Shown in pieces: positions 5,469-64,000 of a stretch of DNA of 64,000 nucleotides (position 1 is its first letter; every line of letters begins with the position of its first letter). The position numbers were made by a program, and so were the translations under genes. A model generated the notes under the pieces. The model had not been told where the DNA came from, ran no database searches, and saw nothing but the letters and a program-made list of their open reading frames with translations. Origin of the DNA: a virus (Duplodnaviria > Caudoviricetes); the IMG/VR virus record IMGVR_UViG_3300021255_000152, positions 64,001 through 128,000 of that record. One strand, given 5' to 3'.

Positions 5469-6038
5469 ATGACAGTAGAAGATGTTTTTGCTGAAGTAAA
5501 TGCGCATATGATTCAAGGACTTATGGTTCATAGTCAAATGGCTAATTATTATGGATTTTTAGGTTTAAAAGGATATTCTAAATGTCATTTATACCATTAT
5601 TGAATGGAAGGAAAATGTCATGTTAAGTTAATGGAATATTATTTTAAATATCATAATAAACTTATTAAAGATATGCCAGTAGAAGATCCAAAATTAATTC
5701 CTAAATCTTGATATAATTATGAGATGAAAGATGTTGATATAACTACAAAGCGCAATGCTGTAAAGGCTGGTATGGAAAAATGGGTTGAATGAGAAGAAAA
5801 TACTGTAAAAACTTTTAAAAAAGCATATAAAGATTTACTTTCTCTTGGAGCAGTTGAAGATGCTAATTATATTATGAATTTATTAGAAGAAGCTAGAGAA
5901 GAGTTAAGTGAAGTAAAATATTGACATATGATGAAAATTGCACAAGATTTTGAAATCGGACCAATTTTAGCTGAACAAGATAAAAAACAGCATAAATATA
6001 AGAAAAAAATTCATAAGCATTGTTGCTGTTGTGAATAA
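5469..6038 (+). CDS. Ferritin-like four-helix-bundle protein (189 aa; TGA=Trp)
   Basis: Absent from the ORF track (4 TGA). GLMVH.QMANYYGFLGLKGY.KCH.YHY..E..H and WVEWE..T. C-terminus HKHCCCCE. Confidence 0.7.
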
Positions 6039-6054
6039 AAAATGGGAACGCTTA

Positions 6055-6083
6055 TTGCGTTCCCTTATTTTTTTTGTTATAAT
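6055..6083 (+). promoter_or_regulatory. Sigma-A-type promoter of ycaO (overlaps upstream terminator hairpin)
   Basis: TTGCGT-17 bp-TATAAT with TG extension. Confidence 0.55.
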
Positions 6084-6104
6084 CTATTTAAGGAGATTGT
6101 CCTA

Positions 6105-7865
6105 ATGAATAAAGAAATTTTAGACTATAAATATAAAGAAAGAACTCCAACGGAAACAGTACAAATTATAAAGGATTTTTTTGAGAAAAAAGGATTTACT
6201 CTTGACTTAGAACATGAAGGTGCTTCAGAGGCTGGAACATATAGTTGCCATATTAAATTATTTTTTGAGGGTGACTTTATTATGTTTTCTAATGGAAAGG
6301 GTGCTACTCGAGATTTAGCTTTAGCTAGCGGATATGCAGAAATGTATGAACGTTTTTGTAATGGTATGAAATCTTTTACTCAGAAAAATTTCTATCATAA
6401 AGTTAAAGAAGTTTGTGAAAAAACTTTTGGATATAAAATTCATCCTCAAGAAAAACAATTAACTTATGAACAAGCCGTATTAGAAGAAAACAATGTTAAT
6501 AATTATTATTCTGTAGTAAGTAATTACAATGAGAAAATTAAAGAAAGAATTGCCAGAACATTAACAAATGATGAATTTATTGGATTACCTTATAAAAATG
6601 TTTTAACTAATGATATAAAATATATTGACCCACAATTAGTTTTAAGATTTGACAATAGTACAGGTATGTGCGCAGGTAATACTTATGAAGAAGCTTTTAA
6701 TGAGGGATTTTCTGAAATATTAGAACGATATTGCTATATTGATTTATTTGGTTCAGAAGGATTAGAAAAATATCATGTTGTAGATTTAACTAAAATAGAA
6801 AATGAGATATTGCGCGAAAAAGCTGAAAATATTAAAAAAGCGGGATATGATTTTTATTTAGTAGATATGTCTTATGAATATGGATTACCTGTTGTTATGG
6901 GACTTTTGGTCAATACTAGAGATCATTTTTGCAGACTTAATTTTGGTAGTTTTCCTATTTTTGAAGTTGCAGCAATGCGCACAATAACAGAAGCATATCA
7001 AAATGTAGATTCTTTTAAAAAATATGAAGATTTAATTCAAGTTCCAGCAGAGAAAAATTTTAACCTTAGTGCATTTTTAAAAGAAAATGGTACTGGATTA
7101 TCTGCTGCTGCTTTTGCGCCAGCTCATTTTTTCACTAGAATTGAACAAATTGATTCTTATAATAAAAATTTTTATATGGACGTTAATTCTACTCCTAAAG
7201 AAATTTATGAATATTATATGCATTTTATTGCAGAGAATGATTTAAATGTTTGGGTGATTGATAATAGTTTAATGAAAGAAGTATTTTCTTTGCATATATA
7301 TGTAGATAATCTCTCTTATAGTTATCCAATGGATTATTTAGTTGAATATAACGATATTAATTATAGATATCTATTTGATCAAATGGAAATTATGAAGAAA
7401 TATGAATATATGATGTATGATATCTCTCCAAATTTTCAAGATATAGATCATTTTGATGTAGAAATTTTATTAGCAAAAGATATAGGCACAAGTTTAGTTA
7501 CATTATTAATGTATTCTCAAACAATCTATCCTTATTTTATTGATTTTGATCCATTTATAAGAATTGTTTTAGATATGGATGAATTAAATTCTGGTACAAT
7601 AGTACGAAAATATTGTTGGACTTTCCTTTTTCCTTATTGTAAAAGATATTATACAATTAGAAGATATGTAGATTCTAATTATTCTTATGAAGAAATGTTA
7701 CCAATTATGGAAAAATTAGGCATTAAGAATTTTTCTAAAGAGGAATATGAACATGCCGCAGATTTGAATTATTTATTGCGAAAAATTTTAATTGAACCAT
7801 GTTGGAATTATTATCATTCAGATAGATATGAAAAATTTTGCCTAGCATTAATAGAAAAAATATAA
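6105..7865 (+). CDS. ycaO: YcaO-family ATP-dependent peptide-backbone-activating enzyme (586 aa)
   Basis: SNGKGAT..LA.ASGYAEMYER and STGMCAGNT.EEA..EG.SEILER ATP-binding motifs. Start at 6105 behind AAGGAG. No in-frame TGA and no C-terminal PxP tail. Confidence 0.9.
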   Translation: MNKEILDYKYKERTPTETVQIIKDFFEKKGFTLDLEHEGASEAGTYSCHIKLFFEGDFIMFSNGKGATRDLALASGYAEMYERFCNGMKSFTQKNFYHKVKEVCEKTFGYKIHPQEKQLTYEQAVLEENNVNNYYSVVSNYNEKIKERIARTLTNDEFIGLPYKNVLTNDIKYIDPQLVLRFDNSTGMCAGNTYEEAFNEGFSEILERYCYIDLFGSEGLEKYHVVDLTKIENEILREKAENIKKAGYDFYLVDMSYEYGLPVVMGLLVNTRDHFCRLNFGSFPIFEVAAMRTITEAYQNVDSFKKYEDLIQVPAEKNFNLSAFLKENGTGLSAAAFAPAHFFTRIEQIDSYNKNFYMDVNSTPKEIYEYYMHFIAENDLNVWVIDNSLMKEVFSLHIYVDNLSYSYPMDYLVEYNDINYRYLFDQMEIMKKYEYMMYDISPNFQDIDHFDVEILLAKDIGTSLVTLLMYSQTIYPYFIDFDPFIRIVLDMDELNSGTIVRKYCWTFLFPYCKRYYTIRRYVDSNYSYEEMLPIMEKLGIKNFSKEEYEHAADLNYLLRKILIEPCWNYYHSDRYEKFCLALIEKI

Positions 7866-7880
7866 AAAAAAGATGGAGAA

Positions 7881-8129
7881 TTAGTCTTTAACCAAATCCC
7901 CTAGGATTGTGACTAATTCTCCATCTTTTATCATGTGTTTTATCCATATCTCATAAGAGAGCGGACGCATTTCATCAAGACGACGTGAATACTCAATTAA
8001 TTCTTCATCAGTAAATTCTTCTAAATACATTAAAATAAGACTTCGTATTTTTACTTCATCTTTTGGAATGCCAAAAAAGTAATTAATTGTTTCTTTTACA
8101 AACTCTTTTTGTTGATGACTAAGGCTCAT
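7881..8129 (-). CDS. Hypothetical protein, last gene of the radical-SAM operon
   Basis: 82-aa ORF with GAGGTG RBS. Confidence 0.6.
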   Translation of the reverse strand: MSLSHQQKEFVKETINYFFGIPKDEVKIRSLILMYLEEFTDEELIEYSRRLDEMRPLSYEIWIKHMIKDGELVTILGDLVKD

Positions 8130-8145
8130 TTTTATTCACCTCTTT

Positions 8146-8628
8146 TATAAATTTTAATAAAAAATCTTTTCCATTTAAAGCTAAAATTGATAAAAATACA
8201 CAATAGGCACTAGTTCCAGTTATTCCTATATCCTGTTCATTTACATTTGTAGCTCAATGAAGAGTATAATTTGCAGAAAATATATTCGATATACATCATG
8301 GATATTGATACTCTTCATCTACTGCTGCAATAACAATATTATTATTTGCTAATTTTATTCATTTTTTTATATCTACTTTTTCAAAAGCAATTGGAACGCA
8401 AATAATAGAATTTTTTATATTAAAATCAATATTAGCTTCATCCATAAAAGTAATTTTTATATTATTTTTTAAATAAGGATAAAATTCATTTTTAAACAAA
8501 TTTAAAATTATCTCTTTATGAAAATTATCTTTATCTATTAAAATAATTTGTTGATTAAAATTATCTAAGGGGATGAGTTTTTGGAATAATTTATCTGTTG
8601 CTAAAAAAGATTCTGATGTTGTTAGCAT
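8146..8628 (-). CDS. Hypothetical protein (160 aa; TGA=Trp)
   Basis: ORF 8359..8628 continues through 3 TGA to TAA 8146 and fills the gap to the next gene. Confidence 0.65.
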
Positions 8629-8837
8629 TAGCCGTTAATTTCAATATCACTATTTGTACTTTCAGAAGTCTCTGGTTTAACATTAGAGCCTAAAATATTA
8701 CTAATAGCAATAATTTGATCATCAGTTAAAAGACCTCTATCAATGTATGTTAATGTCATTTGACGAGCATTAGTTTCATCAATTTGCGCAAAATAACACA
8801 AAGATTCAAAAATAAACTGTAAAGCAACTTGACTCAT
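8628..8837 (-). CDS. Small hypothetical protein
   Basis: 69-aa ORF, tightly packed between neighbours (TAATG overlap with the downstream gene). Confidence 0.6.
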   Translation of the reverse strand: MSQVALQFIFESLCYFAQIDETNARQMTLTYIDRGLLTDDQIIAISNILGSNVKPETSESTNSDIEING

Positions 8838-8838
8838 A

Positions 8839-9804
8839 TTATTTTCCCTCCATTATTTGATCGCAGTAAGAACAATGTCAGCATTCTCCTTTGCAATTTC
8901 TTCTATATAAAAGTCATTTTTGAGGATACTTTATTTGTTCCTCTGGATTTAGATAAATACAAGAACCAGAAATACAATCTAATAAATATGTTGGATTAGT
9001 TCTTGTTGCATAATATTTTAAAATTTTAGATATTTTTTCTGTAGGTAAAGTTCTATCTTCTAGCTTGAATCCATTAAAATATTGATTATAATAATCTAAT
9101 TCTTCTGGTAAAATAAATGGTCCTTTTAATCAATTATGAGTAAATTGATCGGTTAAAAGATTAAAAGTTTCTCTTATTTCAAAAGTATCATTTTCTTTTC
9201 AAGAAGAATTATTTGAACAATATGCGTTTTGATGCCAATAATATAATGGACAATTTATCCTACAAATACTATTTACAATTGTTGAATATTTTATTGAAGT
9301 TTGAGATGTTAAAATTTTTAACATATCCTCATTTCTATTTAAGTCTTGTGGCAAACATATTTCTTGAATATACCCAAGCTTTTCTATTTCTTTTATTTTA
9401 TTTAAATCTTTAATACCAGATAAAATACTTAATCGAATTTTTAAATTAGGAAAATTTATGTATATTCAATGTGCTAAAATTGGATCAGCTACGACTACGC
9501 CAAAAAGTCCAAAAGAACATAGTTTTTTTATATTTTGGCGTAAAATTGTAAGATTATAATTAGAATAATCTATCTTTGAAGAATTTAGAACGACCATTGG
9601 TTTAATATCATATTGATTCATTGTTTGACATAGATAAGATATTATTTCATTATATTTTTCAATATTTGGATAATCGTTTTGTCTAGCACTAGGAAATATA
9701 TCTGGATGTAGTGGAAAGTATATTTCAGAAATATATTTAGAGTATTTTTTATATAAATCTAAAACTTTTAAATCTAAATTAAAGGGGACTTGTAATTTTT
9801 TCAT
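8839..9804 (-). CDS. Peptidase-U32-family Fe-S protein (321 aa; TGA=Trp)
   Basis: VVVADP.L, IRLSI, QDLNRN, IVNSICRINCP, FILPEELDYY..FKLEDR, and C-terminal CKGECWHCSYC. 5 TGA. Confidence 0.75.
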
Positions 9805-10892
9805 TCTTTAAACTCCATTTTATTACTGGCATGAATAGAAAAAATTATTTTATTATTTATTAGAGTTTCTTCTCTAAGATGCTTTTTTAAAACTTTTAAG
9901 CATCCATCATAGAAAGTTTTATTATAAGCACATTGAGCCAAATCTTTATGATATTCTTTTCCTATAAATCCAGTAAAAGGACACTTTCCTCTACATGTTA
10001 TGACATACTTACAATGCTTACAATCTTCTAATTGTTGCTGACGGGTGTTTCTTAAAATATTGCGAAATTCCGATTGTTCAATTTTTTGTTTAAGATTTTC
10101 TTTATCCGTAAATACATTTGCCATACATGTTTCATCGCTTCAAGGCTTTCCGCATGAATAAACGCCGCCATCTGGATGAATTCCATATCAATGTCCAACG
10201 CAATTTTTTCCTTCACAAAAGAACAATTCTTTTCCTTCAATATAAGAAAGTATTTCATCAAAAGGTCTGTCTAAATCATCTGTTTCTGTAATGCATATAT
10301 AATCAAATAATTCAACCATTCTTTTGGCTAATTCAATATGGTCTTCAATCGTTAATCCAATTCCAAAAGCTGTATTAAAAATTAGATTAAACTCATTATC
10401 TCGCGCAAATTGATAAGATTCAATAATTCTCTTACTATTCTCTGGAGTCATTGTAAAAATAGCATTTACAACAACTCCTTTTTCTTTTCCTCGTTGCATT
10501 AATTCAAAGAAATTTCTTGAACCTCTAGATATATTATTATCAATACCATCCCAAGAACTTCCTATGTTTATTTGCAATTTTTTAAAATAATCTAATCAAG
10601 CATCATTTATTAATGTTCCATTTGATTGAAAAGCTCAATTAATAGGTTTATCGGAAAAATGTTGTGTTACATTTTTAAAATAATCAAGTCCTAAAATTGA
10701 AGGTTCCCCTCCATGTCAAATAATTTCTCAAGACTCATTTGGATCAATAGCAATTATATTTTCAAGTGCTTCAATAGCTTGTTCTTGGGTCATTTCTAAA
10801 GGATGTTCTGCATCTCGATTATTTTTTTCATAACAATAAGTGCATTTTAAATTACATCTATATGTTGGTTTAAATATTACTGTATTTGACAT
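9774..10892 (-). CDS. Radical SAM/SPASM enzyme (372 aa; TGA=Trp)
   Basis: KPTYRCNLKCTYC, IIWHGGEP (TGA at 10716), QSNGTLI. SPASM cysteines C..C..DGGVYSC..CKHCKYVITCRGKCP..C. 7 TGA. Confidence 0.9.
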
Positions 10893-12210
10893 AATCTTTT
10901 TGTAGTTCCTCCTTTAAGTATGCTGGCATATATAATTGCTGAATTAAATATTGTTTTAAAGTAGGATTTAATTTAACAAATTCTTTTGGTGTTAAATTTC
11001 CTAATTTATCATAAATATATGGGACAATAGCTTTTCAAAATTTACATTGTGCAGAATATGGCTTTAATCCTTTTGATTCTTTTAAAGAACAATTCAAACA
11101 GCCTTGACCGCAAACAGGAAGATAATCACAGTTTAAACATTGATTTTGTATTTGAGTTTGTTTTAGTTGTTGTAATTTTAAGCTTTTATCTCCATTAAAG
11201 AAATCTTTAATTGAATTAAGCTCATCTATATTGCAAACATGCATTTCTTCAATACTTGTGTCATCACATCTATATAATTCACCATCTGCGTTAATACAAA
11301 TACGATTTGAATATAAGCAATTATCTAAATTGCATATCTCAGCAGAACGATTTAATGCTCGACGTATATAAGCGAGAGCAGATCGTTCTGGAACTCTTGG
11401 ATTATTATCATATATAAAAAATTCTAAATATTTTTTATACTCTTGGATAAATTCATCTATATCTAAGAATTTTTCTAATGGATTATTAGTAGTACCAAAT
11501 ACTGCATTAAAACTAAAAGGAACTCCATTATCAGAAGCCTTTTTAGAATCTGCAATTAAATTTTTAACATTTTGTTTAGTAATTACAGATATTATAAAAT
11601 AAAAATTAGATAATTTTTCTTGAGATAATTCATATCCTCTACATTGCTGCCCACTTCAGTCATAACTGGTTCCAATAGGAACATTATATTTATCTAAAAG
11701 ATATTTTCATTCATCATCTAAAAGAGTTCCATTACTTTGTGCATTAAAAATTAATTTTATATCTTCTTTAATAGCATATTTATACATTTCTAAACAAACA
11801 TCATCAAATCATTGTTTATCTACTGTTAAGAACTCTCCTCCATGTCAAGTTCATTCGATTTTTGAATAACCTTCTTCATTTAATAATCTAAGTAATCTTA
11901 AAATGCGCTCTTTTGATAAAACCATTCTTGGTTTTTGCTGATTTTTTTTATCAAAACAATAAATACAGTTTTGATTACAAAAATTTGTCACTTTACAAAT
12001 AACTTCACAATTATTATAACAATGATGATCGTTTCAATCTCCTTGGAATGTTTTTTCTGAATCCTTTTTTCCCAAAAGAACTTGTAGATATTCGTTTTTT
12101 AATAAAGAGTAATAATTTTGAATTCCTTCTTCTGTAGTTTCATCAATAACTTGATTAAAGTCAATGTTTGGAAGATAATTATCAAAATCTATATAATCAC
12201 TATATTTCAT
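10870..12210 (-). CDS. Radical SAM/SPASM enzyme with ~65-aa N-terminal extension (446 aa; TGA=Trp)
   Basis: KVTNFCNQNCIYC, EWTWHGGE (TGA at 11845), QSNGTLL. SPASM C..C..DGELYRC..CLNCDYLPVCGQGC..C. 7 TGA. Confidence 0.9.
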
Positions 12211-12598
12211 TGAAACCTCCTATATAATGAATAAAATCATTATCTTGTTTATTTTCTTGTGGAGATTTTAAAATATAAATAGTTAATTTATTTTCAATAC
12301 AATATTGAATTATCACATTGATATATTGTAAGGGATAATCTTTAGAAAGGTCAAAGATAACACCACCATTTATAATATCTATATTATTAATTAAATTTTC
12401 AACAGAAGTTTTTGTTATTTTTGTAAAAAGATAATATAAATCAATTCTAGAATCTCAATTATTAGCAATAAATCTTTTTTTAAAAAATTCTGGAATTATT
12501 TTATCTTCAAAAGATAAAGCTATCTTGCATTCTTCTGTTTTGTCGAAAACATGACGAATATTTTTATAAATATCTTTATCATATTGAAAAATTTTCAT
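12200..12598 (-). CDS. Hypothetical protein (132 aa; TGA=Trp)
   Basis: MKIFQYDKD...IGGFNEI with 1 TGA. Fills the space between the putative substrate gene and the rSAM gene. Confidence 0.65.
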
Positions 12599-12600
12599 AA

Positions 12601-13782
12601 TTAATCTCCTGTTCCTAAATATGTAAGTAAATCTTGAATATCAATAATTTTTTGATTTTCAATAAATTCATCTACTCCTCCACCAGTAGAATAATTTGGG
12701 TTATTTCCTGTTCTTAAATTATAAGCTGTTGATGTTCCTTGGCGCATTTGAAGAATATCTTCCCATGTAATAATGGTAAAATTAGAAACTACTGGACTAT
12801 TTGTAAAAGTAACAGTAGTTTGACCCATTGCAGTGAGAACTTTATTTACTTCTCCTTGTACCTGATCTTCATTTGGTTTAGTATAATAGTCAGTATTTCA
12901 AGTAGGAGCTGTATAGTGATAAATTCTAATTGGAGAAGAGACTGCGGCATAAGTGGTTTCGTATGCGGTTGTATCTTGTCTAACATTACTATAACCAGTA
13001 CCATTATTTGATGCAGTAACTGCATTGGTAGCATGATTTTCAATATGATGATAAGTTCAGCCATTTCCTGAAGGAATAGCACTCCAACTACCATTATCAT
13101 AAACAGTAACACCAATTTTATACCAACCAGCGGTTAATGAAGTAGCTGTTCAAGTATAAGAGGTTGAAGTCTGTTCTGATAATAAGGTCCAATTTCCATA
13201 AGTACCGTTTTGGGTAGCACAATATTGATAATATATACGAAATTTTGTGGCTGTGCTAGTATTATCATCAGAATATATTAATGATGTTAATATAATTTTT
13301 ATAGATTTGCTGTTATAATATCTAGAATTTGCAAATGTTGAACCAGATACTTGAGGTGCTTTATTGGTAGTGTTTGTTGGAGTTCTTCCAGTTTCTACTG
13401 TTGTATTAACTGCTGCAGTGTTGGTGTGATTATTATATCCAGTATTTCTATGGTTACTATATCCACTATTTGTATGGTTATTATATCCGCTTTTAGTATA
13501 TCCACCATTGTTTGTGTGGTCATCATAACCTCTGTCGTTATGATTTGCGTATCATCCATCATTCATAGTTCATCCAGAACTTCTTCTATCGGTATGATCG
13601 TCACTACCGCTATTTCTATGGTTGCTATAATTTCTATGGTTATTATATCCAGTATTTCTATGGTTATTAGCACCAGACTGAGAATAATTATTATAACCTG
13701 ATTGACGATATGCAGAATTTGTATGTCTATAATTTATTCTATATCCATTGGTATGAACCGCTTTTTGATGAGATTTAATCAT
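12601..13782 (-). CDS. Putative modification substrate: Y-x-N/H-x-N repeat array + Thr-rich linker + Ig/Fn3-like domain + C-terminal domain (393 aa; TGA=Trp)
   Basis: ATG 13782 behind AAAGGAG. A single frame links ORFs 13570..13836 and 12601..12828 through TGA at 13570, 13552, 13150, 13057 and 12898. Confidence 0.85.
13414..13755 (-). repeat. Degenerate coding tandem repeat, unit ~(S/T)GY(N/S/D)(N/D)H(R/T)(N/D)
   Basis: For example SGYNNHTN SGYSNHRN TGYNNHTN. DNA unit AACCATAGAAATACTGGATATAAT recurs. Confidence 0.85.
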
Positions 13783-14734
13783 TTTCTTTCTCCTTTCTAT
13801 ATCCAAGACAGGCGCAATAAAGTCCCGTTCGAGCATGTCTTGGACAAGATAAGCATTCTTTTTGAGGCGGAGTTTTTCTTAGAGAATCTTCTTCCGCATG
13901 AAGTAAATCTAATATTTCATCAAAAGTTTCAAACTCTGATAAAGCATGTTTGAACTTGTTGCATCCAAAACAACCAATAATATCTAATTCTGGCGTAACA
14001 TCTAAGGCAGAACCATCACAAGCAAAACTTCCAAAAAATGATGGGTCTATCTTCATAGCAAATGCAACGAAATCATCGTCATATGCGCAAATAGGCGGAT
14101 TATTACAATCGCAAGAAAATGTTACATTATATTTGGTTGCCCAAGTCAGCATTTCTTTTAATATAGGTTGAAATTCATGAAAATACTGTTTAAAATTAAA
14201 ATCTTTAGATAATTTCATATTTGGTACAGTAATTGACCATCTAATATCAGAAATATTATATTTTGCAATAATGTCTTCCCAAAAGCTCATATCTTGATGC
14301 GGATCAAAAATATTAATACTAATACGACTTACAGCATTTGGAATGCATAAAGAAAGATAGTCTAAATTACGTTCTATCGTAGGAAGAAATTGCGGATTAT
14401 TGTTAATATTTGGTAAAAATTCAATAAAAATTTCATCACTATATTCCACAATTTTTTGAGCAAATTCAAAAGAAAATGAAAAATTAGAAAAAACTAACAC
14501 GGAAGAAAAACAATCATAAGAAATTATAATATCTAATAAATCAAAAAATTGCGGATGTAATGATGGCTCTCCTCCGATAAGTCTAACATTTTTTTCATTA
14601 TTTTGCTTTAAAAAATCTAAATATATTTTAAAGTTATCTAAATTTATATTTTTTACTGTATTTGTTTTCATTTCTGTTTGCGCGAAGCAATAAGGACAAT
14701 GAAAATTGCAATAAGTATTTATCATTAAGTTCAT
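13775..14734 (-). CDS. Radical SAM enzyme with Cys-rich C-terminus (319 aa), first gene of operon
   Basis: CNFHCPYC, IGGEP, and C-terminal C..GCFGC..CLSC..CAC. No in-frame TGA. Confidence 0.9.
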   Translation of the reverse strand: MNLMINTYCNFHCPYCFAQTEMKTNTVKNINLDNFKIYLDFLKQNNEKNVRLIGGEPSLHPQFFDLLDIIISYDCFSSVLVFSNFSFSFEFAQKIVEYSDEIFIEFLPNINNNPQFLPTIERNLDYLSLCIPNAVSRISINIFDPHQDMSFWEDIIAKYNISDIRWSITVPNMKLSKDFNFKQYFHEFQPILKEMLTWATKYNVTFSCDCNNPPICAYDDDFVAFAMKIDPSFFGSFACDGSALDVTPELDIIGCFGCNKFKHALSEFETFDEILDLLHAEEDSLRKTPPQKECLSCPRHARTGLYCACLGYRKEKEND

Positions 14735-14752
14735 AGTCTATACCTCAATATA

Positions 14753-14781
14753 ATTCTATCAAAAAAAAACGCTTCTGTCAA
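14753..14781 (-). promoter_or_regulatory. Near-consensus sigma-A promoter of the radical-SAM operon
   Basis: TTGACA-17 bp-TAGAAT with TG extension. Confidence 0.75.
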
Positions 14782-14890: not shown

Positions 14891-17368
14891 ATGTTAAATT
14901 TATGCTTACCTATGAAGGTGATTAACATTACTCAACATTCTGGTAGTAATTTTAGTCATCCAAATGGCGCACTCGATTTAGCAGGTTCTGATGCTGGAGT
15001 AGATTTTGCTTTTGCTCTTGGTAATTACTGAAGATGTATTGCAGGACCTTGAGGAAGTAATACGTATTTCTTCACCGCATCTGACGCAAAAGGTAATCCA
15101 GTTACAGTTCATTGCGCGGATGGAGTGAATAGAATTGTTACCGTAGCTATGACTCATAGTAATTTAAGGTATAATAAACCTATTATTGGTAAAGTTTATT
15201 CTGATGGTGAAGCGATATATGAAGAAGGTACTGCAGGTCAAGCAACAGGTAATCATATTCATTTTGAAGTGGCAGAAGGCTTGCATTATAGTAAAACAAA
15301 AGACTATAATTTAAATGTATATCGTATGCCAAATGAATTAAAACCAGAAGATGTTTGCTTTATCTGTGATAGTTTCTCTAAAGTTAAGAGCATGGGTGGA
15401 GTAACGATGAAACATTGTGATACACCTTATTATGAAACGCAAGATACTAAACCAGTATTAGGAACACTACGCGGTATTGATATTAGTAACTGGCAGGCAA
15501 GTATGGATGTGGCTGCGGTCAGTGCTGATTTCGTAATCCTAAAAGCTAGTGAAGGCGTAGATTGGAAAGACCCTGCGTTCGATACATTACTTGAAAAGGT
15601 TAAGAAAACCGATAAGTTAATCGGTTTTTATCATTTTGCACGTCCAACCGCAAACAACACTCCAGAAGCTGAAGCTGAAAGTTTCTTGAAGTTTATTACT
15701 CCTTCTGGATTAATTGGCAAGGCTATTCTAGCTTTGGACTGGGAAGCTGAAAATAAACAAAATGTTGCTTATGCTAAAGCATGGCTTGACTATGTTTATA
15801 ATAAAACAGGTGTTAAGCCTTGGATTTATATGAGTGAGTCTGTTACCAAGAATTATGATTGGAGTTCTGTTGCAAACGCTGGTTATCCTCTTTGGGTAGC
15901 TAAGTATAGAGATAAGTCTCAAGATTATAATTATGATATGACTAATGCGGGAACAGCACCACAGGTTAATTATTGGAATAATTATATTATGTGGCAATGG
16001 ACTGGTGTTGGTAGATTAGACAGTTATAATGGAGATATTGATTGCAATTTATTCTACGGAACTGCTGATACTTGAAGAAGTTTAGCTGCTCCAGTAGAAG
16101 ATGAATTAGCACAATATACTGACCTTGAGCTTGCGCACATGGTTCTTGAAAATAAGTTCGGCACAGGCGAAGAACGTAAAAAAGCTTTAGGCGATAGATA
16201 CAAAGCGGTTCAATTAATTGTAAATCAATTAGTTAAAGAACAGCAAGAACAAAAGCCTTCTATTGATGTTGGACCTGTTGTCAAATATTCAATTCAATAT
16301 AATGGATTAACTGTTCATATTGCAAAGATCAAAAAAGATCAAGAGATTAGAGGTTCTGTTGATGGAAATAGATATGGGGTTAAATATGATAAAACTGTTC
16401 CAGCAGGATTCTCTGATAAGGATTTACTTAATGCCGGTTATCAAGAAGCTTGCGCGCAAAATGGTTCAACATTCTATTCATGGAATGGCGCCACTTATGC
16501 AGAAGGCATTGAGATTTCTAAGGGTATAAATAATCAAGATTTTTATATGGATGCAGTTTCTAAATTTAATAGTGTTATGGCTATTGGATTTCCATATACT
16601 GGTGGAATTGTATTTGCGCCACAAAAAGAAATTGTTGAAACTTATTCTAGATATTATGGAGCAGTAACGGGCATTTTTGGAATTATTTATGAAGGAAAAC
16701 AAAATGCTATGGGAAGTTCTATTAACCGCAATGGAGGATTTACTGTAAAAAGTGGGCGTTCTATCCTTGCGGAAGATGAAGATTACTATTATTCTATTTG
16801 TTTTGTTGGAGATACTGGTTCTACTGGTCTTACTGGAAAAGAGCTTTATAATTTATGTATAACCGTGTCTAAAAATATGATTAATGCTATTTGCTTTGAT
16901 GGTGGTGGAAGTGTATTCCAAAGAATTGAAGGTGAATATACAATCAATACTACTCGTCAAGTTAAAAATGGTATTATGTTATTTATTAAAGATGATGAAT
17001 CTACTTCACAAGAACCAAAAGATGAAACACCAGTAAATCCTTTAGATAAATATTCTGACGAAGAGTTGGCAGATATGGTTCTTGACGGAAAATTTGGTTC
17101 TGGGGATGCACGAAAAGAAGCTCTTGGAAATAGATATATAGCAGTTCAAACTATCGTTAATATAAGAGTTATTAACGCTTATTTAAGAGCAGGAGATAAA
17201 ATCCGTATTAAAAATAATGCTAAAGATTTAAATACAGGAACTACTTATATCAAATCAGTCTATTTAACAGTATATAAAGTAAAAGAAATTTCTGAAAATA
17301 GAGTAGTATTTGGTACAGATAATGCAATTATTGGCGTTGTTTCTAAAGATAATATTATATTAGAATAA
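14891..17368 (+). CDS. Multidomain endolysin: M23-like peptidase + GH25 muramidase + Cpl-7-like repeat + phosphodiester-glycosidase-like domain + Cpl-7-like repeat (825 aa; TGA=Trp)
   Basis: AAGGAG RBS. HPNGALD and GNHIHFE (M23-like); GIDISNWQ..KASEG..GFYHF..LDWE..WQWTG (GH25); two LAxMVLxxKFGxGxxRKxALGxRYxAVQxIVN repeats; AICFDGGGS. TGA at 15029, 15050, 16073. Confidence 0.85.
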
Positions 17369-18480: not shown

Positions 18481-18551
18481 AGGGGTATCGTTCAACGGTA
18501 GGACAGTGGTCTTCAACACCATATATGTGGGTTCGAATCCTACTACCCCTG
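18481..18551 (+). tRNA. tRNA-Trp with UCA anticodon (opal suppressor)
   Basis: Cloverleaf: AGGGGTA/TACCCCT acceptor with G discriminator (Trp-like); D arm GTTC/GGAC; anticodon arm GTGGT-CT TCA AC-ACCAT (TCA at 18513-18515); T arm GTGGG-TTCGAAT-CCTAC. Confidence 0.92.
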
Positions 18552-18569
18552 CTATTATTGAGGTGTTTT

Positions 18570-19253
18570 ATGAAATATGCTTATGTTACATTGTTAAGTT
18601 CTGATGATTATATTTGAGGAGTCCTTGGATTAAAATATAGTTTAGAAAAAAATAATTGTAAATATCCGCTAGTCACAATAGTAACAAATGATATTTCTCA
18701 AAAAAATTTAAATTTATTAAAACAAGAAAATATTATTATTAAATTAGTAGAAAAACAAGTTTTTCAGAATATCTCAAATGACCATAGATATAAAACTTGT
18801 ATAAATAAGCTATATATTTTTGGTTTAAGTGAATATGAAAAAATATTTTTTCTTGATGCTGATTGTATTGTTATTTATAATTTAGATTTTTTATTCAATT
18901 ATGATCTTCCAATATTTTCTATAATTCCAGATATAGAAACTTCTTATAGTCGTGGATATATTTGAGGAGGTGCTTTTTTAGTAAAACCTTCTTTAAAATT
19001 AAAAGAATACTTTTTTCAAATAGCACCAAATTTTGATACTGATGAAAAAATTCTTAATGATTTTTTCCAAAATTTTAATTTTAAAATTTTTAATGCAAGC
19101 TTTTTTATCATACACGACTATAATCCGATTAAAAAGTATTGGGAGAGATATTCTTTAAAAGATAAAGAAAAAATAAAAAATTTTATTGATAATTCAACAT
19201 ACTTAATTATGGAAAAAACAAATTGAATATATTCAGAAATTTTACCACATTAA
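18570..19253 (+). CDS. Glycosyltransferase family 8 (glycogenin-like) (227 aa; TGA=Trp)
   Basis: Absent from the ORF track (3 TGA). YAYVTLL..DDY..GV..L..SL and KLYIF.L.EYEKIFFLDAD (DxD motif). Confidence 0.85.
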
Positions 19254-60700: not shown

Positions 60701-60789
60701 ATTTATATTATAACAAAAAAAATAAAGGAGAGCAACACATGCTCTCCTTTATACAGGCTCCCAAGAGAGGAGCAATGGATATCAACGCG

Positions 60790-60870
60790 TCCAGTCAGCG
60801 GGACTTGAACCCGCACGTCTCTCGACAACACCCCCTCAAGATGCCGTGTCTGCCATTCCACCATGACCGG
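60790..60870 (-). tRNA. tRNA-Leu(GAG)
   Basis: Cloverleaf with long variable arm; loop TT GAG GG. Confidence 0.85.
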
Positions 60871-60874
60871 AGAG

Positions 60875-60947
60875 TGCTGGTGACAGGAGTCGAACCTGCA
60901 ACCTACTGATTACAAGTCAGTTGCGCTGCCAATTGCGCCACACCAGC
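60875..60947 (-). tRNA. tRNA-Thr(TGT)
   Basis: CTGAC-TT GTA A region read as loop CT TGT AA; canonical cloverleaf. Confidence 0.9.
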
Positions 60948-61083
60948 AGAATCTAACCTTTGAAAATATTCACAACCTTTAAGCCATTCAAGTTCATGCG
61001 GATTACATCTTTGAGAACCGCATTTTTCACAATATTTTTCTTGAAACTCTTCAAAAGTCATAGTTATACCTCCAAGGTTATAG

Positions 61084-61170
61084 TGGGTAGGGAGGGACTC
61101 GAACCCCCAAGTTTACCGCGTGGGACCTGATTTACAGTCAGGCGACTTCACCAATTTGTCACACCTACCC
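61084..61170 (-). tRNA. tRNA-Tyr(GTA)
   Basis: CCTGA-CT GTA AA-TCAGG, long variable arm. Confidence 0.9.
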
Positions 61171-61171
61171 A

Positions 61172-61384
61172 TTACTTTGTGTTGTTGTTTGAAAATATTC
61201 CACGGAATACCATACAAACAACTGTGAATAAAATTACAAGGGGCCAACTAAATGCTACTGTCCATCCTGCTATTGAAGTGATACCAACTGTCTTAAGACC
61301 CCAACAAATAATCCATACAAGACCTGCGTTTATTAACAATGCAATAATAAGTCCAACTAACGCTCCAATAATAACTGCTACCAT
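61172..61384 (-). CDS. Small membrane protein
   Basis: AAGGAGG RBS, two TM segments. Confidence 0.65.
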   Translation of the reverse strand: MVAVIIGALVGLIIALLINAGLVWIICWGLKTVGITSIAGWTVAFSWPLVILFTVVCMVFRGIFSNNNTK

Positions 61385-61403
61385 TTTAACCTCCTTGTAA
61401 TAG

Positions 61404-61477
61404 TGACACTACGGGGATTCGAACCCGCGATTATCCGATTGAGAGCCGGATTTCCTGAACCATTAGAAGATAGTGCC
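61404..61477 (-). tRNA. tRNA-Glu(CTC)
   Basis: Loop CT CTC AA; cloverleaf. Confidence 0.85.
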
Positions 61478-61482
61478 ATAGG

Positions 61483-61632
61483 ATAACCCACTGGGATTCG
61501 CACCCAGATATTCTGCCTTTCACAGCAGACCCACTGCGTACCAAGAGTCGTTTGCAACCGAGTTCTTGATAGGTATGTCCTCCTAACTGCTTGCAAGTCC
61601 AGTTAGCCATACAGACCTTATGGTATGGGTTA
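61483..61632 (-). ncRNA. tRNA-like RNA with D arm replaced by a ~95-nt multi-hairpin insert
   Basis: TAACCCA/TGGGTTA acceptor, CTGGG-TGCGAAT-CCCAG T-like arm, TCTGC-TGTGAAAG-GCAGA arm. Confidence 0.6.
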
Positions 61633-61634
61633 AG

Positions 61635-61709
61635 TCATGCCGACGGGACTCGAACCCGCGAATCCTGCCTTGAAAGGGCAGTGTGTTAAACCAGTTTCAC
61701 CACGACATG
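61635..61709 (-). tRNA. tRNA-Glu(TTC)
   Basis: CTGCC-CT TTC AA-GGCAG. Confidence 0.85.
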
Positions 61710-61715
61710 AAATAG

Positions 61716-61829
61716 TGGAGGAGGAAGGGATTTGAACCCCCAAAGTCTAGAATTCTATTAACTAGTATTTTAGCGCGCTACCGACACCAGTGTTACGCAC
61801 TGGCTCCGTTACCATTTGGATACTCCTCC
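61716..61829 (-). tRNA. Atypical tRNA-Tyr-like (GTA) with ~45-nt variable region
   Basis: GGAGGAG acceptor; CCAGT-GC GTA AC-ACTGG (no U33); normal T loop. Confidence 0.55.
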
Positions 61830-61836
61830 ATATAAG

Positions 61837-61909
61837 CGGTCCCGACGGGTGATGCTCCCGCTATCTCTACCTTGACAGGGTAGCGACTCTGCTGACTGTC
61901 CCCGAGACC
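61837..61909 (-). tRNA. tRNA-Asp(GTC), non-canonical D and T loops
   Basis: CTACC-CT GTC AA-GGTAG; T loop AGCATCA. Confidence 0.7.
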
Positions 61910-61981
61910 ATATTTTAAGCTAGGATCCAACCATCCATTATGTCACCCTACCGAACGCTAACATGTGACTACCTAGCTTAG

Positions 61982-62056
61982 TGGGAATGAGAGGACTTGA
62001 ACCTCCGACCTCTCGCTTATCAGGCGAACGCTCTAGACCAGCTGAGCTACACTCCC
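61982..62056 (-). tRNA. tRNA-Ile(GAT)
   Basis: Canonical cloverleaf; loop CT GAT AA. Confidence 0.92.
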
Positions 62057-62066
62057 AGAAAATGGA

Positions 62067-62240
62067 TTATCGAGGTACAACCTCGTAATCCATCGCATCT
62101 ACGCGAAGATCTTCCAAACAGGTATAATCTTCATTAACGTAGTCTGCCATATCTTGGTCAGCAAAGGGGGTTTCTCCCAGCATTGACTGCATAAGCCCCG
62201 CTGACATAATCAAGTCCCTTGAATTAAAACGTTCTCTCAT
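62067..62240 (-). CDS. Small acidic hypothetical protein (57 aa)
   Basis: MRERFNSRDL...YEVVPR with purine-rich RBS and TGTTATAAT upstream. Below the ORF-track cutoff. Confidence 0.5.
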   Translation of the reverse strand: MRERFNSRDLIMSAGLMQSMLGETPFADQDMADYVNEDYTCLEDLRVDAMDYEVVPR

Positions 62241-62316
62241 ATTTCATTCCCCTTTCCTTACCTTACATATATATTATAACATTTATTTTTTATTTTTTCA
62301 AATAATTAGTATAACC

Positions 62317-62706
62317 AGGTGTGCAGTTGGACGCCTCGAACAGGGCTGTTAAGAATCTATGGCTCGATATTTGGTTCCTCAATCACACGCATTTCTTGCG
62401 GATTCAACGAATAGTAACTGGGGTAGCTTACGCGGATTTTCACCGCCGCCCTCTGTGGTGTCTCCCCACTGCTTTCCGCAGGACGAACTTTATTTTCTTC
62501 ACGGCTTTTAATGCTTGCCTACTGGTTATGAAAAGATCTAAGGCAGAGTGACGACTCTCCTAAATTCAACTGCGTCTCCTACTTATGTAGTAATTGAATT
62601 ACCTTAGACCTTGCAAGGCACAACCCTTGCGCGCAGGTGACTTTACCTGGAGTTCCCCGACTTTTTTAAGTCCAGTATAACAACATACACTATCGGGTGG
62701 TGGAAC
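62317..62706 (-). ncRNA. Candidate large structured non-coding RNA
   Basis: ~390 nt GC-elevated stretch in the tRNA array with no convincing ORF and several hairpins with GAAA/GCAA/GAGA-type loops. Confidence 0.45.
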
Positions 62707-62709
62707 TAA

Positions 62710-63216
62710 TTATTTTTCAAGTCTAATAACCTGATCTGGTTCAACTTCTGTAGAGAAATATACGCCATCAAGGCCGATAAGATCTCTAGCGACATCCTGA
62801 TAAAGTACGGATGTAATGCCCTGTTCTGTACCAAGGTCATCGCTGAAATACTGAGCAACGTCCTTCTTAAATACTACGTGAGTAATAGGCTGACTGTAGA
62901 GTCCCTGGAATTCAGAGCAGTGAGAGAAAATTGGATTGCCCTTAAAAGCAGTGGAATAAAGAGTTGCTTTACCTGCTCCTGTAAGATTATTACCAGGCAC
63001 AACAGTAATTTTAAGGGAAACTGCCCCAAAAATTTGTTCGCAAGGAAGAAGCTGAGAAATTGCTTCTGCCTTTTCAAGATCTTCTACATAGAGCTTAACC
63101 TCAAGATTGTCCTCGTCAAAGACGATGTTAATTCCTGGATCCTTGCCAAAAAGAACACGAAGTTCTCTGACATAGATATACCAAGGAGCGGATAACTTTA
63201 ACTTATTCTGGTCCAT
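62710..63216 (-). CDS. Hypothetical protein
   Basis: 168 aa, AAGGAG RBS. LSAPW..Y..LF..DP.I. Confidence 0.7.
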   Translation of the reverse strand: MDQNKLKLSAPWYIYVRELRVLFGKDPGINIVFDEDNLEVKLYVEDLEKAEAISQLLPCEQIFGAVSLKITVVPGNNLTGAGKATLYSTAFKGNPIFSHCSEFQGLYSQPITHVVFKKDVAQYFSDDLGTEQGITSVLYQDVARDLIGLDGVYFSTEVEPDQVIRLEK

Positions 63217-63239
63217 TTTTAATATCTCCTTTTTAAAAG

Positions 63240-63313
63240 TCTCCTCTGAGGGATTCGAACCCCCGGCACCTACGTTCGTAGCGTAGTGCTCTATTCCACT
63301 GAGCTAAGAGGAG
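63240..63313 (-). tRNA. tRNA-Arg(ACG)
   Basis: CTACG-CT ACG AA-CGTAG. Confidence 0.9.
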
Positions 63314-63543
63314 ATAAGTACGCCGAACATCCTATTGAATCACTTTCATCTTGCGGGATTTCTATTGTTTCTTTGCCGGCAGAGTTTGAACCATTAACCG
63401 TGGCGTAGGGTAATTTAATAACGACCAGTAGATAAACTTCCCATAAAGCTACTGAATGATAGTTCTACTTCCTTTCGACAGCGCTATCAACCGAGAAGAT
63501 CTTCCCAGGCATATCCGCGGTTTATGTTTCTCCTGAGAATGAG

Positions 63544-63616
63544 TCGCCCCAGTAGGACTTGAACCTACGACCCTCTGCTTGTAAGGCAGATGCTCTCCCA
63601 ACTGAGCTATGGGACG
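63544..63616 (-). tRNA. tRNA-Val(TAC)
   Basis: TCTGC-CT TAC AA-GCAGA. Confidence 0.92.
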
Positions 63617-63618
63617 AT

Positions 63619-63885
63619 TTAATCGTTTTCTAAATGTAAATCAGACTTTTTCATTATAGTACCATCTGCATTATAGGCTACTGTTATTCCACCTCTATAT
63701 GTGGCAATAAACATAAGATAAACAACTTCTGTATCTTCATCAATAGCGTAATAAAAATGTTCATTATCTGATGAATATACAGTCATATTAGTTGGACCTT
63801 TTCCGTTATAAGCAGTATGTGGATTACTACATCCTGTCAATAATAAAGCAGATAACACTATTTTTATTAAATCTGAAAATTTCAT
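63619..63885 (-). CDS. Putative lipoprotein
   Basis: Lipobox LLTGC after a hydrophobic signal. Confidence 0.7.
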   Translation of the reverse strand: MKFSDLIKIVLSALLLTGCSNPHTAYNGKGPTNMTVYSSDNEHFYYAIDEDTEVVYLMFIATYRGGITVAYNADGTIMKKSDLHLEND

Positions 63886-63905
63886 TTAGCATCTCTCCTT
63901 TTAAA

Positions 63906-63980
63906 TAGCAGAAGTGAGATTCGAACTCACAACCAATAGGGTATGAATCTATTGCTCTAACCGATTGGAGCTATTCTGCT
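63906..63980 (-). tRNA. tRNA with CAT anticodon (Met or Ile2)
   Basis: Loop TT CAT AC; cloverleaf. Confidence 0.85.
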
Positions 63981-64000
63981 AAAAGCACCCGAGGAAGGAT

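Follow-up and report, generated by a model that had tools for sequence, protein, structure and literature searches.

The subject of this report is an unusual repeat protein encoded within a 64,000-nt stretch of DNA (the window; all window coordinates are on the presented strand) taken from a gut phage, represented by a linear 138-kb IMG/VR virus contig with an estimated completeness of 79%. Its gene, located at 12601-13782 on the minus strand, specifies 393 amino acids (aa) when TGA is read as Trp, and joins a long N-terminal array of aromatic-x-Asn/Asp motifs to a fibronectin type III (Fn3) domain amid genes for radical S-adenosylmethionine (rSAM) enzymes. With somewhat better than even confidence, we propose that this protein is a dedicated substrate which the surrounding rSAM enzymes modify by side-chain cross-linking, most likely of a triceptide-like kind. 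We favor this reading because the array is predicted to be disordered, the Asn/Asp at its +2 position is conserved, its aromatic residue is swapped almost only for other aromatics, and no other conserved precursor accompanies the enzymes. That the array is what these enzymes act upon is likewise the most economical explanation for an rSAM neighborhood that is invariant and translationally coupled. The suggestion of an earlier note on this DNA that the protein is a candidate substrate is thus supported, as it is by far the best candidate in its operon and is flanked by rSAM genes in the loci examined.

The array spans residues 10-123 (13414-13755, minus strand) and is built on the octad G-Y-N-N-H-[T/R]-N-x, with a Trp-containing spacer, SSGWTMNDGWY, that splits it in two. 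A program count reproduced the hand count given in the earlier note, namely 11 H-x-[N/D] and 10 Y-x-[N/D/Q] motifs, and further yielded 19 of the form [HYW]-x-[N/D]. The His-centered variants comprise H-T-N, H-R-N, H-S-N, and H-T-D, and all but one of the 12 His in residues 1-140 belong to an H-x-[N/D] motif. Shuffles that preserve composition gave means of 3.1, 3.9, and 7.3 for the three motif classes, and none attained the observed counts (p <= 0.0002); such shuffle statistics are inflated to the extent that internal repeats are not independent of one another. Consecutive His are chiefly spaced by 8 residues, and 24-nt tandem repeats are evident in the DNA at 13416-13499 and 13612-13676. AlphaFold predicts the array to be disordered, with predicted local distance difference test (pLDDT) values of 25-35 that stay below 50 throughout residues 18-130, so that it should be accessible to enzymes. 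A beta-solenoid was considered and rejected, given that the model contains no regular structure, although order could still arise after modification.

The repeat protein belongs to a real, unnamed family of about 40 metagenomic relatives, of which a word-indexed search retrieved 23, while a hidden Markov model (HMM) search with a C-terminal profile returned 17 representatives below 1e-30. Neither this protein nor its 132-aa neighbor has a match in Pfam, NCBIfam, or PHROGs. GenBank phages gave no match to the locus by DNA or protein, peptide-pattern scans of IMG/VR and GTDB genomes produced no confirmed relatives, and no description of the repeat-protein/rSAM cassette was found in the full-text literature. 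Full-length members share a common plan that consists of a conserved N-terminus (M.K..QKAVH[T/S]NG...), an array, a Thr-rich linker, an Fn3 domain, and a C-terminal module. They range from 314 to 768 aa, with arrays of about 70 to 514 aa that are rich in aromatics, Asn, Ser, Thr, Gly, and Cys and nearly devoid of aliphatics. The upper bound comes from the standard-code relative L008, where the public call (P0046, 254 aa) is a gene-calling error that kept only the last 254 aa of a 768-aa open reading frame (ORF; 5839-8145). In the true ORF the array is 514 aa long and built from units of 13 and 16 residues, amounting to some 35 Tyr/His/Cys/Asp repeats, and databases accordingly under-report such arrays.

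Across this family the repeat unit itself varies, occurring as 8-, 13-, and 16-mers, while the aromatic-x-[N/D] register is retained. This persistence supports the previously suggested link to the aromatic-X-X motif of triceptides, and since the register outlasts changes of the repeat unit, selection probably acts on the triplet. Together, the 23 non-redundant arrays hold 291 aromatic-x-[N/D] motifs against an expectation of 119 (z 19.6), and offsets +1 and +3 are depleted (z -2.7 and -6.2), values subject to the same inflation by repeats. Among 30 arrays, the residue at His+2 is N in 62%, D in 16%, and K in 6% of cases, His+1 is T or S in 62%, and Trp+2 is D in 32%. Of five His changes between close relatives, four lead to Tyr; X2 varies most (69% identity), and X3 changes from N to D, R, or K. 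This substitution pattern matches the triceptide aromatic-X2-X3 motif.

Equally informative is the genomic setting of the repeat gene. The operon in the window lies entirely on the minus strand and proceeds from a promoter-like site through rSAM-A, the repeat gene, a 132-aa ORF, SPASM-B, SPASM-C, and a U32-family gene to three small ORFs. The promoter-like site (14753-14781) is 5' of rSAM-A and reads TTGACA-17-TAGAAT with a TG element, with 11 of 12 matches; it is a consensus match only. The first operon gene, rSAM-A (13775-14734; 319 aa), has a CX3CX2C motif at residue 9, a Cys-rich C-terminus, and no TGA. Its 3' end is overlapped by 8 nt by the ATG of the repeat gene at 13782, which is preceded 7 nt upstream by AAAGGAG, a strong ribosome-binding site, and the two genes are predicted to be translationally coupled. 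The start at 13782 and the resulting length of 393 aa, as assigned previously, are borne out by this ribosome-binding site, by database gene calls, and by a Met shared among all homologs. Downstream of the repeat gene, the 132-aa ORF (12200-12598) has poorly conserved counterparts of similar size in the same slot of related loci. It is followed by the paralogous SPASM-B (10870-12210; 446 aa) and SPASM-C (9774-10892; 372 aa), each with 7 TGA codons, a U32-family protein (8839-9804; 321 aa) with a Cys-rich C-terminus, and three small genes (7881-8837; 69, 169, and 82 aa) that are free of repeat- or precursor-like features. The small ORFs of the cassette are not conserved, and the operon offers no alternative conserved small substrate or precursor-like product. 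A role for these ORFs as a recognition element (RRE) for RiPPs, peptides that are made by ribosomes and then modified after translation, or as a chaperone was set aside on account of their poor conservation.

Beyond the window, 10 separate loci were examined, with L002 and L003 counted as one place and L004 and L005 as another. An rSAM gene adjoins the repeat gene in the ten loci, in recoded and standard-code phages alike and down to 26-32% identity, one 2.3-kb contig with only a partial downstream ORF (L009) being uninformative. Every locus long enough to show them has two anSME-like SPASM paralogs (anSME, anaerobic sulfatase-maturating enzyme), and most also carry a third rSAM gene and a U32 or S8 peptidase, with a YcaO gene in some. 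The full set of rSAM-A, SPASM-B, SPASM-C, and U32 is found in GCA_001684375.1, which has YcaO on the opposite strand, in L001, and in L012, where all genes, including YcaO, lie on a single strand. L002 + L003 has S8 with A, B, and C; L004 + L005 has A, B, and C with a third SPASM; L013 has S8 and A with three SPASM-type genes; and L008 has S8, B, and C without rSAM-A. L007 shows an incomplete ORF upstream that is probably A, fragments of SPASM genes broken by TGA, and U32. L014, another 2.3-kb contig, shows a U32-like tail upstream and, directly downstream, a 381-aa rSAM/SPASM gene with six TGA codons. U32 is therefore present in the window, GCA_001684375.1, L001, L007, L012, and L014, and S8 in L002, L008, and L013, S8 replacing U32 in one cassette sub-lineage. 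The S8 protein of L002 weakly resembles QhpE.

The two SPASM paralogs are themselves divergent, at 26% identity (5e-21). In the enzyme tree the SPASM-B sequences of all seven loci sampled group as a single clade, and the second enzyme falls in one of two well-supported clades, C-I (window, L001, L002, L012, L005) or C-II (L004, L008, L013), from which we conclude that the duplication is old and that both copies have been kept. Cys-rich and Tyr-only arrays do not sort cleanly by clade C-I versus C-II. The SPASM-C ortholog of L012 (10867-11928), which has no CX3CX2C and whose branch is very long, may be degenerate and non-catalytic. Of the two SPASM sequences scored, P0004 has CX3CX2C at residue 78 and an auxiliary CX2CX5CX3C at 358 and exceeds the TIGR04085 cut-off (39.5 vs. 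27 bits), while P0005 has the corresponding motifs at residues 13 and 291 and is borderline for Pfam SPASM (21.3 vs. 21.5 bits). In single-sequence comparison the nearest relatives of B and C are anSME (full length), DynA, TIGR04083, AmcB, PapB, YhhB, and GrrM, all far below cut-offs. NCBIfam scores for P0004/P0005 are 44-49 bits for XyeB, 53-68 for GrrM/OscB, 53-73 for YhhB, 51-90 for AmcB, and 39-43 for FxsB, against cut-offs of 310-450; DynA gives 74-129 bits against 450 and DarE 38-85 bits against 650. Cassette enzymes of the other loci score similarly. Among solved structures, anSME, CteB, and the triceptide synthase ChlB lie nearest to B and C, the ChlB match being confined to the N-terminal third (8e-8). 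By both structure and sequence, anSME (4k36/4k37) is the best full-length relative of SPASM-C (single-sequence 3e-15). A profile match to anSME at 1e-124 was rejected, since the alignment used (A6) contains genuine anSMEs (P0146 and P0148, both above cut-off). Sequence comparison thus places B and C in a family of their own within the anSME-like SPASM group, which contains cyclophane and thioether synthases. rSAM-A displays only generic radical-SAM similarity, within a largely viral and Bacillota cluster. The first ~50 residues of SPASM-B resemble a separate 51-62-aa ORF of other loci; the idea that its N-terminal 60 aa are a fused small ORF was not adopted, the 28% identity being to the L001 small ORF only and suggestive at most. 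Prediction of a complex between SPASM-C (twin P0137) and residues 1-56 of the repeat protein scored 0.00, from an input alignment that included true anSMEs, and counts neither for nor against such a pairing.

Reading this operon at all depends on the recoding of TGA. Under table 11, the minus-strand frame at 12601-13836 contains five stops, every one TGA (first bases 13572, 13554, 13152, 13059, and 12900), and the repeat gene, in which all five are in frame, ends at a TAA (12601-12603). Assignment of TGA to Trp is well supported, because a suppressor tRNA with anticodon UCA is encoded at 18481-18552 (plus strand), because two of the five positions are near-invariant Trp columns among homologs, and because TGA is located at a W-HGGE motif in both SPASM enzymes of the window. 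The same Trp columns are encoded by TGG in a relative from a standard-code locus (P0030). The suppressor tRNA, which would be needed for the in-frame TGA codons of the operon, sits within the recoded block, since TGA-as-sense lengthens frames over approximately the first 20.5 kb, and beyond that point, up to 64 kb, in-frame TGA is missing from most genes. The TGA-bearing genes (window ~1-20500) comprise tail fibre, the modification operon, lysin, GT8, and RuvC-like, and most long replication and structural genes at 20600-64000 lack in-frame TGA. Standard gene calling fragmented every operon gene except rSAM-A, and the locus thereby illustrates how stop-codon recoding can conceal entire operons.

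Several further elements make up the rest of the protein. Residues 1-20 (13723-13782, minus strand; M.K..QKAVHTNGY.INY) are the most conserved stretch within the N-terminal third, contain the first H-T-N, and include an H10 that is invariant in an 18-sequence alignment (A1); more distant members begin at the same N-terminal start. This ~20-aa segment is a candidate recognition or leader-like element, and the earlier impression of almost no leader is not borne out. On the other side, the Thr-rich linker noted previously maps to residues 124-139 (13366-13413, minus strand) and includes a conserved E-T-G-R-T-P-x-N segment. The Ig/Fn3-like beta-sandwich proposed to follow it is confirmed by structure prediction at residues 138-290 (12913-13371, minus strand), with pLDDT 85-96 for the greater part of residues 140-250, an insert of low confidence at 252-271, and matches to titin Fn3 domains (Z 9.2-9.4, rmsd 2.4-2.7, 95-99 aligned), despite no sequence match to Pfam fn3. 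The remaining residues, 291-393 (12604-12912, minus strand), are predicted to form a three-fold beta-alpha domain of no named family and without a Pfam match, with helices at 302-318, 340-358, and 376-390; modeled by itself it reaches pLDDT 85. Its best structural matches, to designed helical bundles and to the beta-alpha repeat domain BARA, are at Z ~6 and do not define a clear fold, and viral structure models gave no match. Distant relatives display a clear three-fold sequence repeat in this domain, approximately W-T-D ... H-[I/V]-x-E-L-R. The domain recurs at the C-terminus of many otherwise unrelated Ig-containing proteins, including one S8 peptidase; proteins carrying the repeat are P0076, P0080, P0081, P0095, P0117, P0118, and P0127.

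The proposed modification can be envisaged as follows. The operon would be translated only once the phage UGA-reading tRNA becomes available, presumably late in infection, after which the disordered N-terminal array would be threaded through SPASM-B, SPASM-C, and rSAM-A. These enzymes would abstract side-chain hydrogens to install covalent cross-links inside each aromatic-X-[Asn/Asp] triplet, the likeliest product being, as for triceptides, a three-residue cyclophane that connects the aromatic ring to the C-beta of X3. Thioethers may arise in relatives that have Cys in place of the Tyr, and YcaO, in loci that encode it, could add azolines or thioamides. Trimming of the product is probably the task of the cassette peptidase, a U32 protein in the window and S8 in other loci, and release of peptides by it may also occur. 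A rigid, protease-resistant cross-linked array would then remain on the Fn3 and C-terminal module, which would set its location. That the modified arm stays on the protein is suggested by the good conservation of this module and by the position of the gene, which usually has tail-fibre genes on one side and lysis genes on the other; the window operon is situated between tail-fibre genes (Gp10_C domain, S74 chaperone) and a lysin plus a membrane-protein gene. Ig-like domains of tailed phages are typically found on virion proteins. It is conceivable, though we would put it well short of probable, that tailed phages infecting anaerobic bacteria of the gut employ three or four rSAM enzymes, in some cases with YcaO, to convert the hypervariable aromatic-X-Asn/Asp array into a poly-macrocyclic, protease-proof arm on an Fn3 anchor, as part of a virion or of a protein released at lysis.

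Several observations weigh against cross-linking of the array as proposed. The case for it is built wholly from sequence and context, and the array statistics, as noted, are inflated by repeats. B and C score 42-133 bits against every named maturase family, for which curated cut-offs are 300-650, so that their chemistry is unreadable from homology. Two family members, P0039 and P0041, have no aromatic-x-[N/D] excess. The octad Tyr position varies family-wide (Y 30%, C 19%, then N, S, K, and others), and alignment therefore points to a single conserved motif per unit; as this Tyr is not a conserved aromatic position, the division of Tyr and His cross-linking between the two SPASM paralogs suggested in the earlier note is unsupported. 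Characterized triceptide precursors do not resemble a protein of 314-768 aa that has an N-terminal array, a leader of no more than ~20 aa, and, behind the array, folded domains (Fn3 and the C-terminal one). Finally, the L004 cassette adjoins replication genes rather than tail or lysis genes, which weakens the argument for a structural protein.

Should the array instead be left unmodified, it might serve as a low-complexity arm for metal binding, adhesion, or spacing, with the rSAM enzymes acting on a small protein, a cofactor, a nucleic acid, or a host target. Repeats rich in His, Tyr, Asp, and Cys can bind metals, and disordered low-complexity regions are frequent in phage surface proteins; the enzymes, moreover, exceed no curated family cut-off, and the similarity of rSAM-A is generic. 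We nonetheless regard such an arm as unlikely, as it leaves unexplained the rSAM flanking and translational coupling of the repeat gene, the +2-specific register with its depletion at +1 and +3, and the exchange of His for Tyr or Trp, which are aromatic yet poor substitutes as ligands, and no other conserved small substrate is available in the cassette. A different possibility retains the array as substrate while altering the chemistry, through epimerization, beta-hydroxylation or oxidation of Asn/Asp, inter-repeat His-Tyr or Cys-Asp/Asn links, or YcaO-dependent azoline or thioamide formation on Ser, Thr, or Cys. The enzymes are about equidistant from anSME, an oxidase, DynA, which makes C-C and N-C links, PapB, which makes a Cys-Asp thioether, and cyclophane synthases; Cys replaces Tyr in many relatives, an orthologous YcaO lies inside the L012 operon, and a cassette with three or four rSAM enzymes should carry out more than a single reaction. 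On the other side, the strongest conserved feature is an aromatic with N/D at +2, the signature of aromatic-to-C-beta triplets, and YcaO is absent from most loci, and we consider these chemistries quite improbable.

The protein could also be a giant multi-core RiPP precursor, in which the Fn3 and C-terminal parts serve as a docking or follower region and a peptidase frees macrocyclic peptides, acting as antimicrobials or signals, at lysis. RiPPs with many tandem cores per precursor are known, array length varies (~70 to 514 aa), and a peptidase-family gene, U32 or S8, is found in the window cassette and in 9 of the 10 separate loci, the L002 S8 being weakly similar to QhpE, the leader protease of another rSAM-cross-linked protein. 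Against this, some U32 family members are not proteases, and the alternation of U32 and S8, each of which marks one sub-lineage, represents a single evolutionary event. There is no conserved cleavage signal between repeats, and a search for short repeat peptides encoded on their own found none. Conservation is highest in the C-terminal half, and the last domain of that half, being shared with many Ig-containing proteins, probably has an independent function. On balance peptide release from such a precursor seems to us rather unlikely, and cross-linking of an array retained as substrate within the protein remains the reading that we prefer.

How this system relates to those already characterized is instructive. 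Makers of triceptides include XyeB, GrrM/OscB, YhhB, HaaB, HtkB, and ChlB. In triceptides, rSAM/SPASM enzymes join an aromatic ring to the C-beta of X3, and His-containing aromatic-X2-X3 cyclophanes (HTK, HAA, HNR) are known experimentally (PMC11499958). The present system resembles them in its repeated aromatic-X2-X3 motifs, including His forms, with several motifs per precursor, and in maturases of the anSME-like SPASM group with no obvious RRE domain (PMC11499958). It departs from them in that its enzymes fall below every curated triceptide-synthase cut-off, in having two to four rSAM genes per cassette, and in being phage-encoded within a presumably late, TGA-recoded operon. A parallel for a protein substrate is quinohemoprotein amine dehydrogenase, in which the rSAM/SPASM enzyme QhpD puts several Cys-Asp/Glu cross-links in QhpC and the subtilisin-like QhpE, a dedicated S8 peptidase, trims it. 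Both systems would place rSAM/SPASM cross-links in a polypeptide kept as a working protein part, and the L002 cassette has an S8 peptidase with its weak match to QhpE; here, however, QhpD is matched weakly (P0005 at 49 bits, the C enzyme of L002 at 62.5 bits, cut-off 453), a dehydrogenase context is lacking, and the candidate sites repeat in tandem along a disordered arm.

Precedent for action on a protein rather than on a leader-guided peptide is likewise provided by anSME, the best full-length relative of SPASM-C. P0004 and P0005 nevertheless score only 117 and 81.5 bits against the TIGR03942 cut-off of 349.45, and no sulfatase is present. An anSME-type S-x-P-x-R site (S-S-P-I-R, residue 282) was dismissed as chance, lying in a segment that is variable in the family alignment. 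The His-Xaa-Ser system (HxsA, HxsB/HxsC) similarly sets a His-containing tandem repeat beside an rSAM/SPASM paralog pair, and the earlier note had drawn attention to it; membership is not borne out, as the repeat protein has zero H-x-S motifs and no HxsA match, and the HxsB model yields 57 and 62 bits vs. 370. As for the downstream module, the Fn3 domain and the location of the gene, mostly between tail-fibre and lysis genes, recall Ig-like/Fn3 decoration and fibre proteins such as T4 Hoc, though no sequence or fold match to specific virion proteins was found. By sequence, then, the system appears nearest in its working to triceptide or QhpC-type maturation and fails membership in either on enzyme scores, precursor architecture, or both. 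What would be new is the use of rSAM/SPASM cross-linking on a giant tandem array carried by a phage protein.

A second modification enzyme is encoded next to the operon. Convergent with it, a YcaO gene (6042-7865, plus strand; 607 aa, Pfam 1.2e-35) is preceded, within 5469-7865 on the same strand, by a 189-aa ORF ending in H-K-H-C-C-C-C-E and two other small ORFs; the Cys-tailed product could be a second YcaO substrate. The window YcaO and that of L012 are full-length orthologs at 37% identity, the latter being the first operon gene, directly upstream of rSAM-A on the same strand. With YcaO beside the cassette in the window and GCA_001684375.1 and inside the operon in L012, gene order indicates a recurrent accessory of the cassette; it was not found within 8-10 kb of the cassette in L001, L002, L004, L008, or L013. 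Upstream of the operon, the lysin (14891-17368, plus strand; 825 aa) contains GH25, an NAGPA-like domain, and two CW_7 repeats, with 3 in-frame TGA codons, a domain make-up that indicates a Gram-positive host. A GT8-family glycosyltransferase (18525-19253, plus strand) has its start within or just past the suppressor tRNA, and nine more tRNA genes (Leu, Thr, Tyr, Glu x2, Ile, Arg, Val, Met) are located at 60789-63981 on the minus strand.

If the array is cross-linked as proposed, RiPP-style radical macrocyclization would extend beyond small secreted bacterial peptides to a whole phage protein with dozens of sites, and the substrate logic of SPASM enzymes would be widened to an N-terminal array followed by folded C-terminal domains, with little or no leader. 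The array would in turn provide a natural poly-substrate for the enzymology of cyclophane and thioether synthases. For the phages themselves, it would define a new class of post-translationally hardened protein in gut phages, and, should the arm indeed remain on its anchor, the first case in which the macrocyclization of peptide natural products builds a viral structural or host-interaction appendage.

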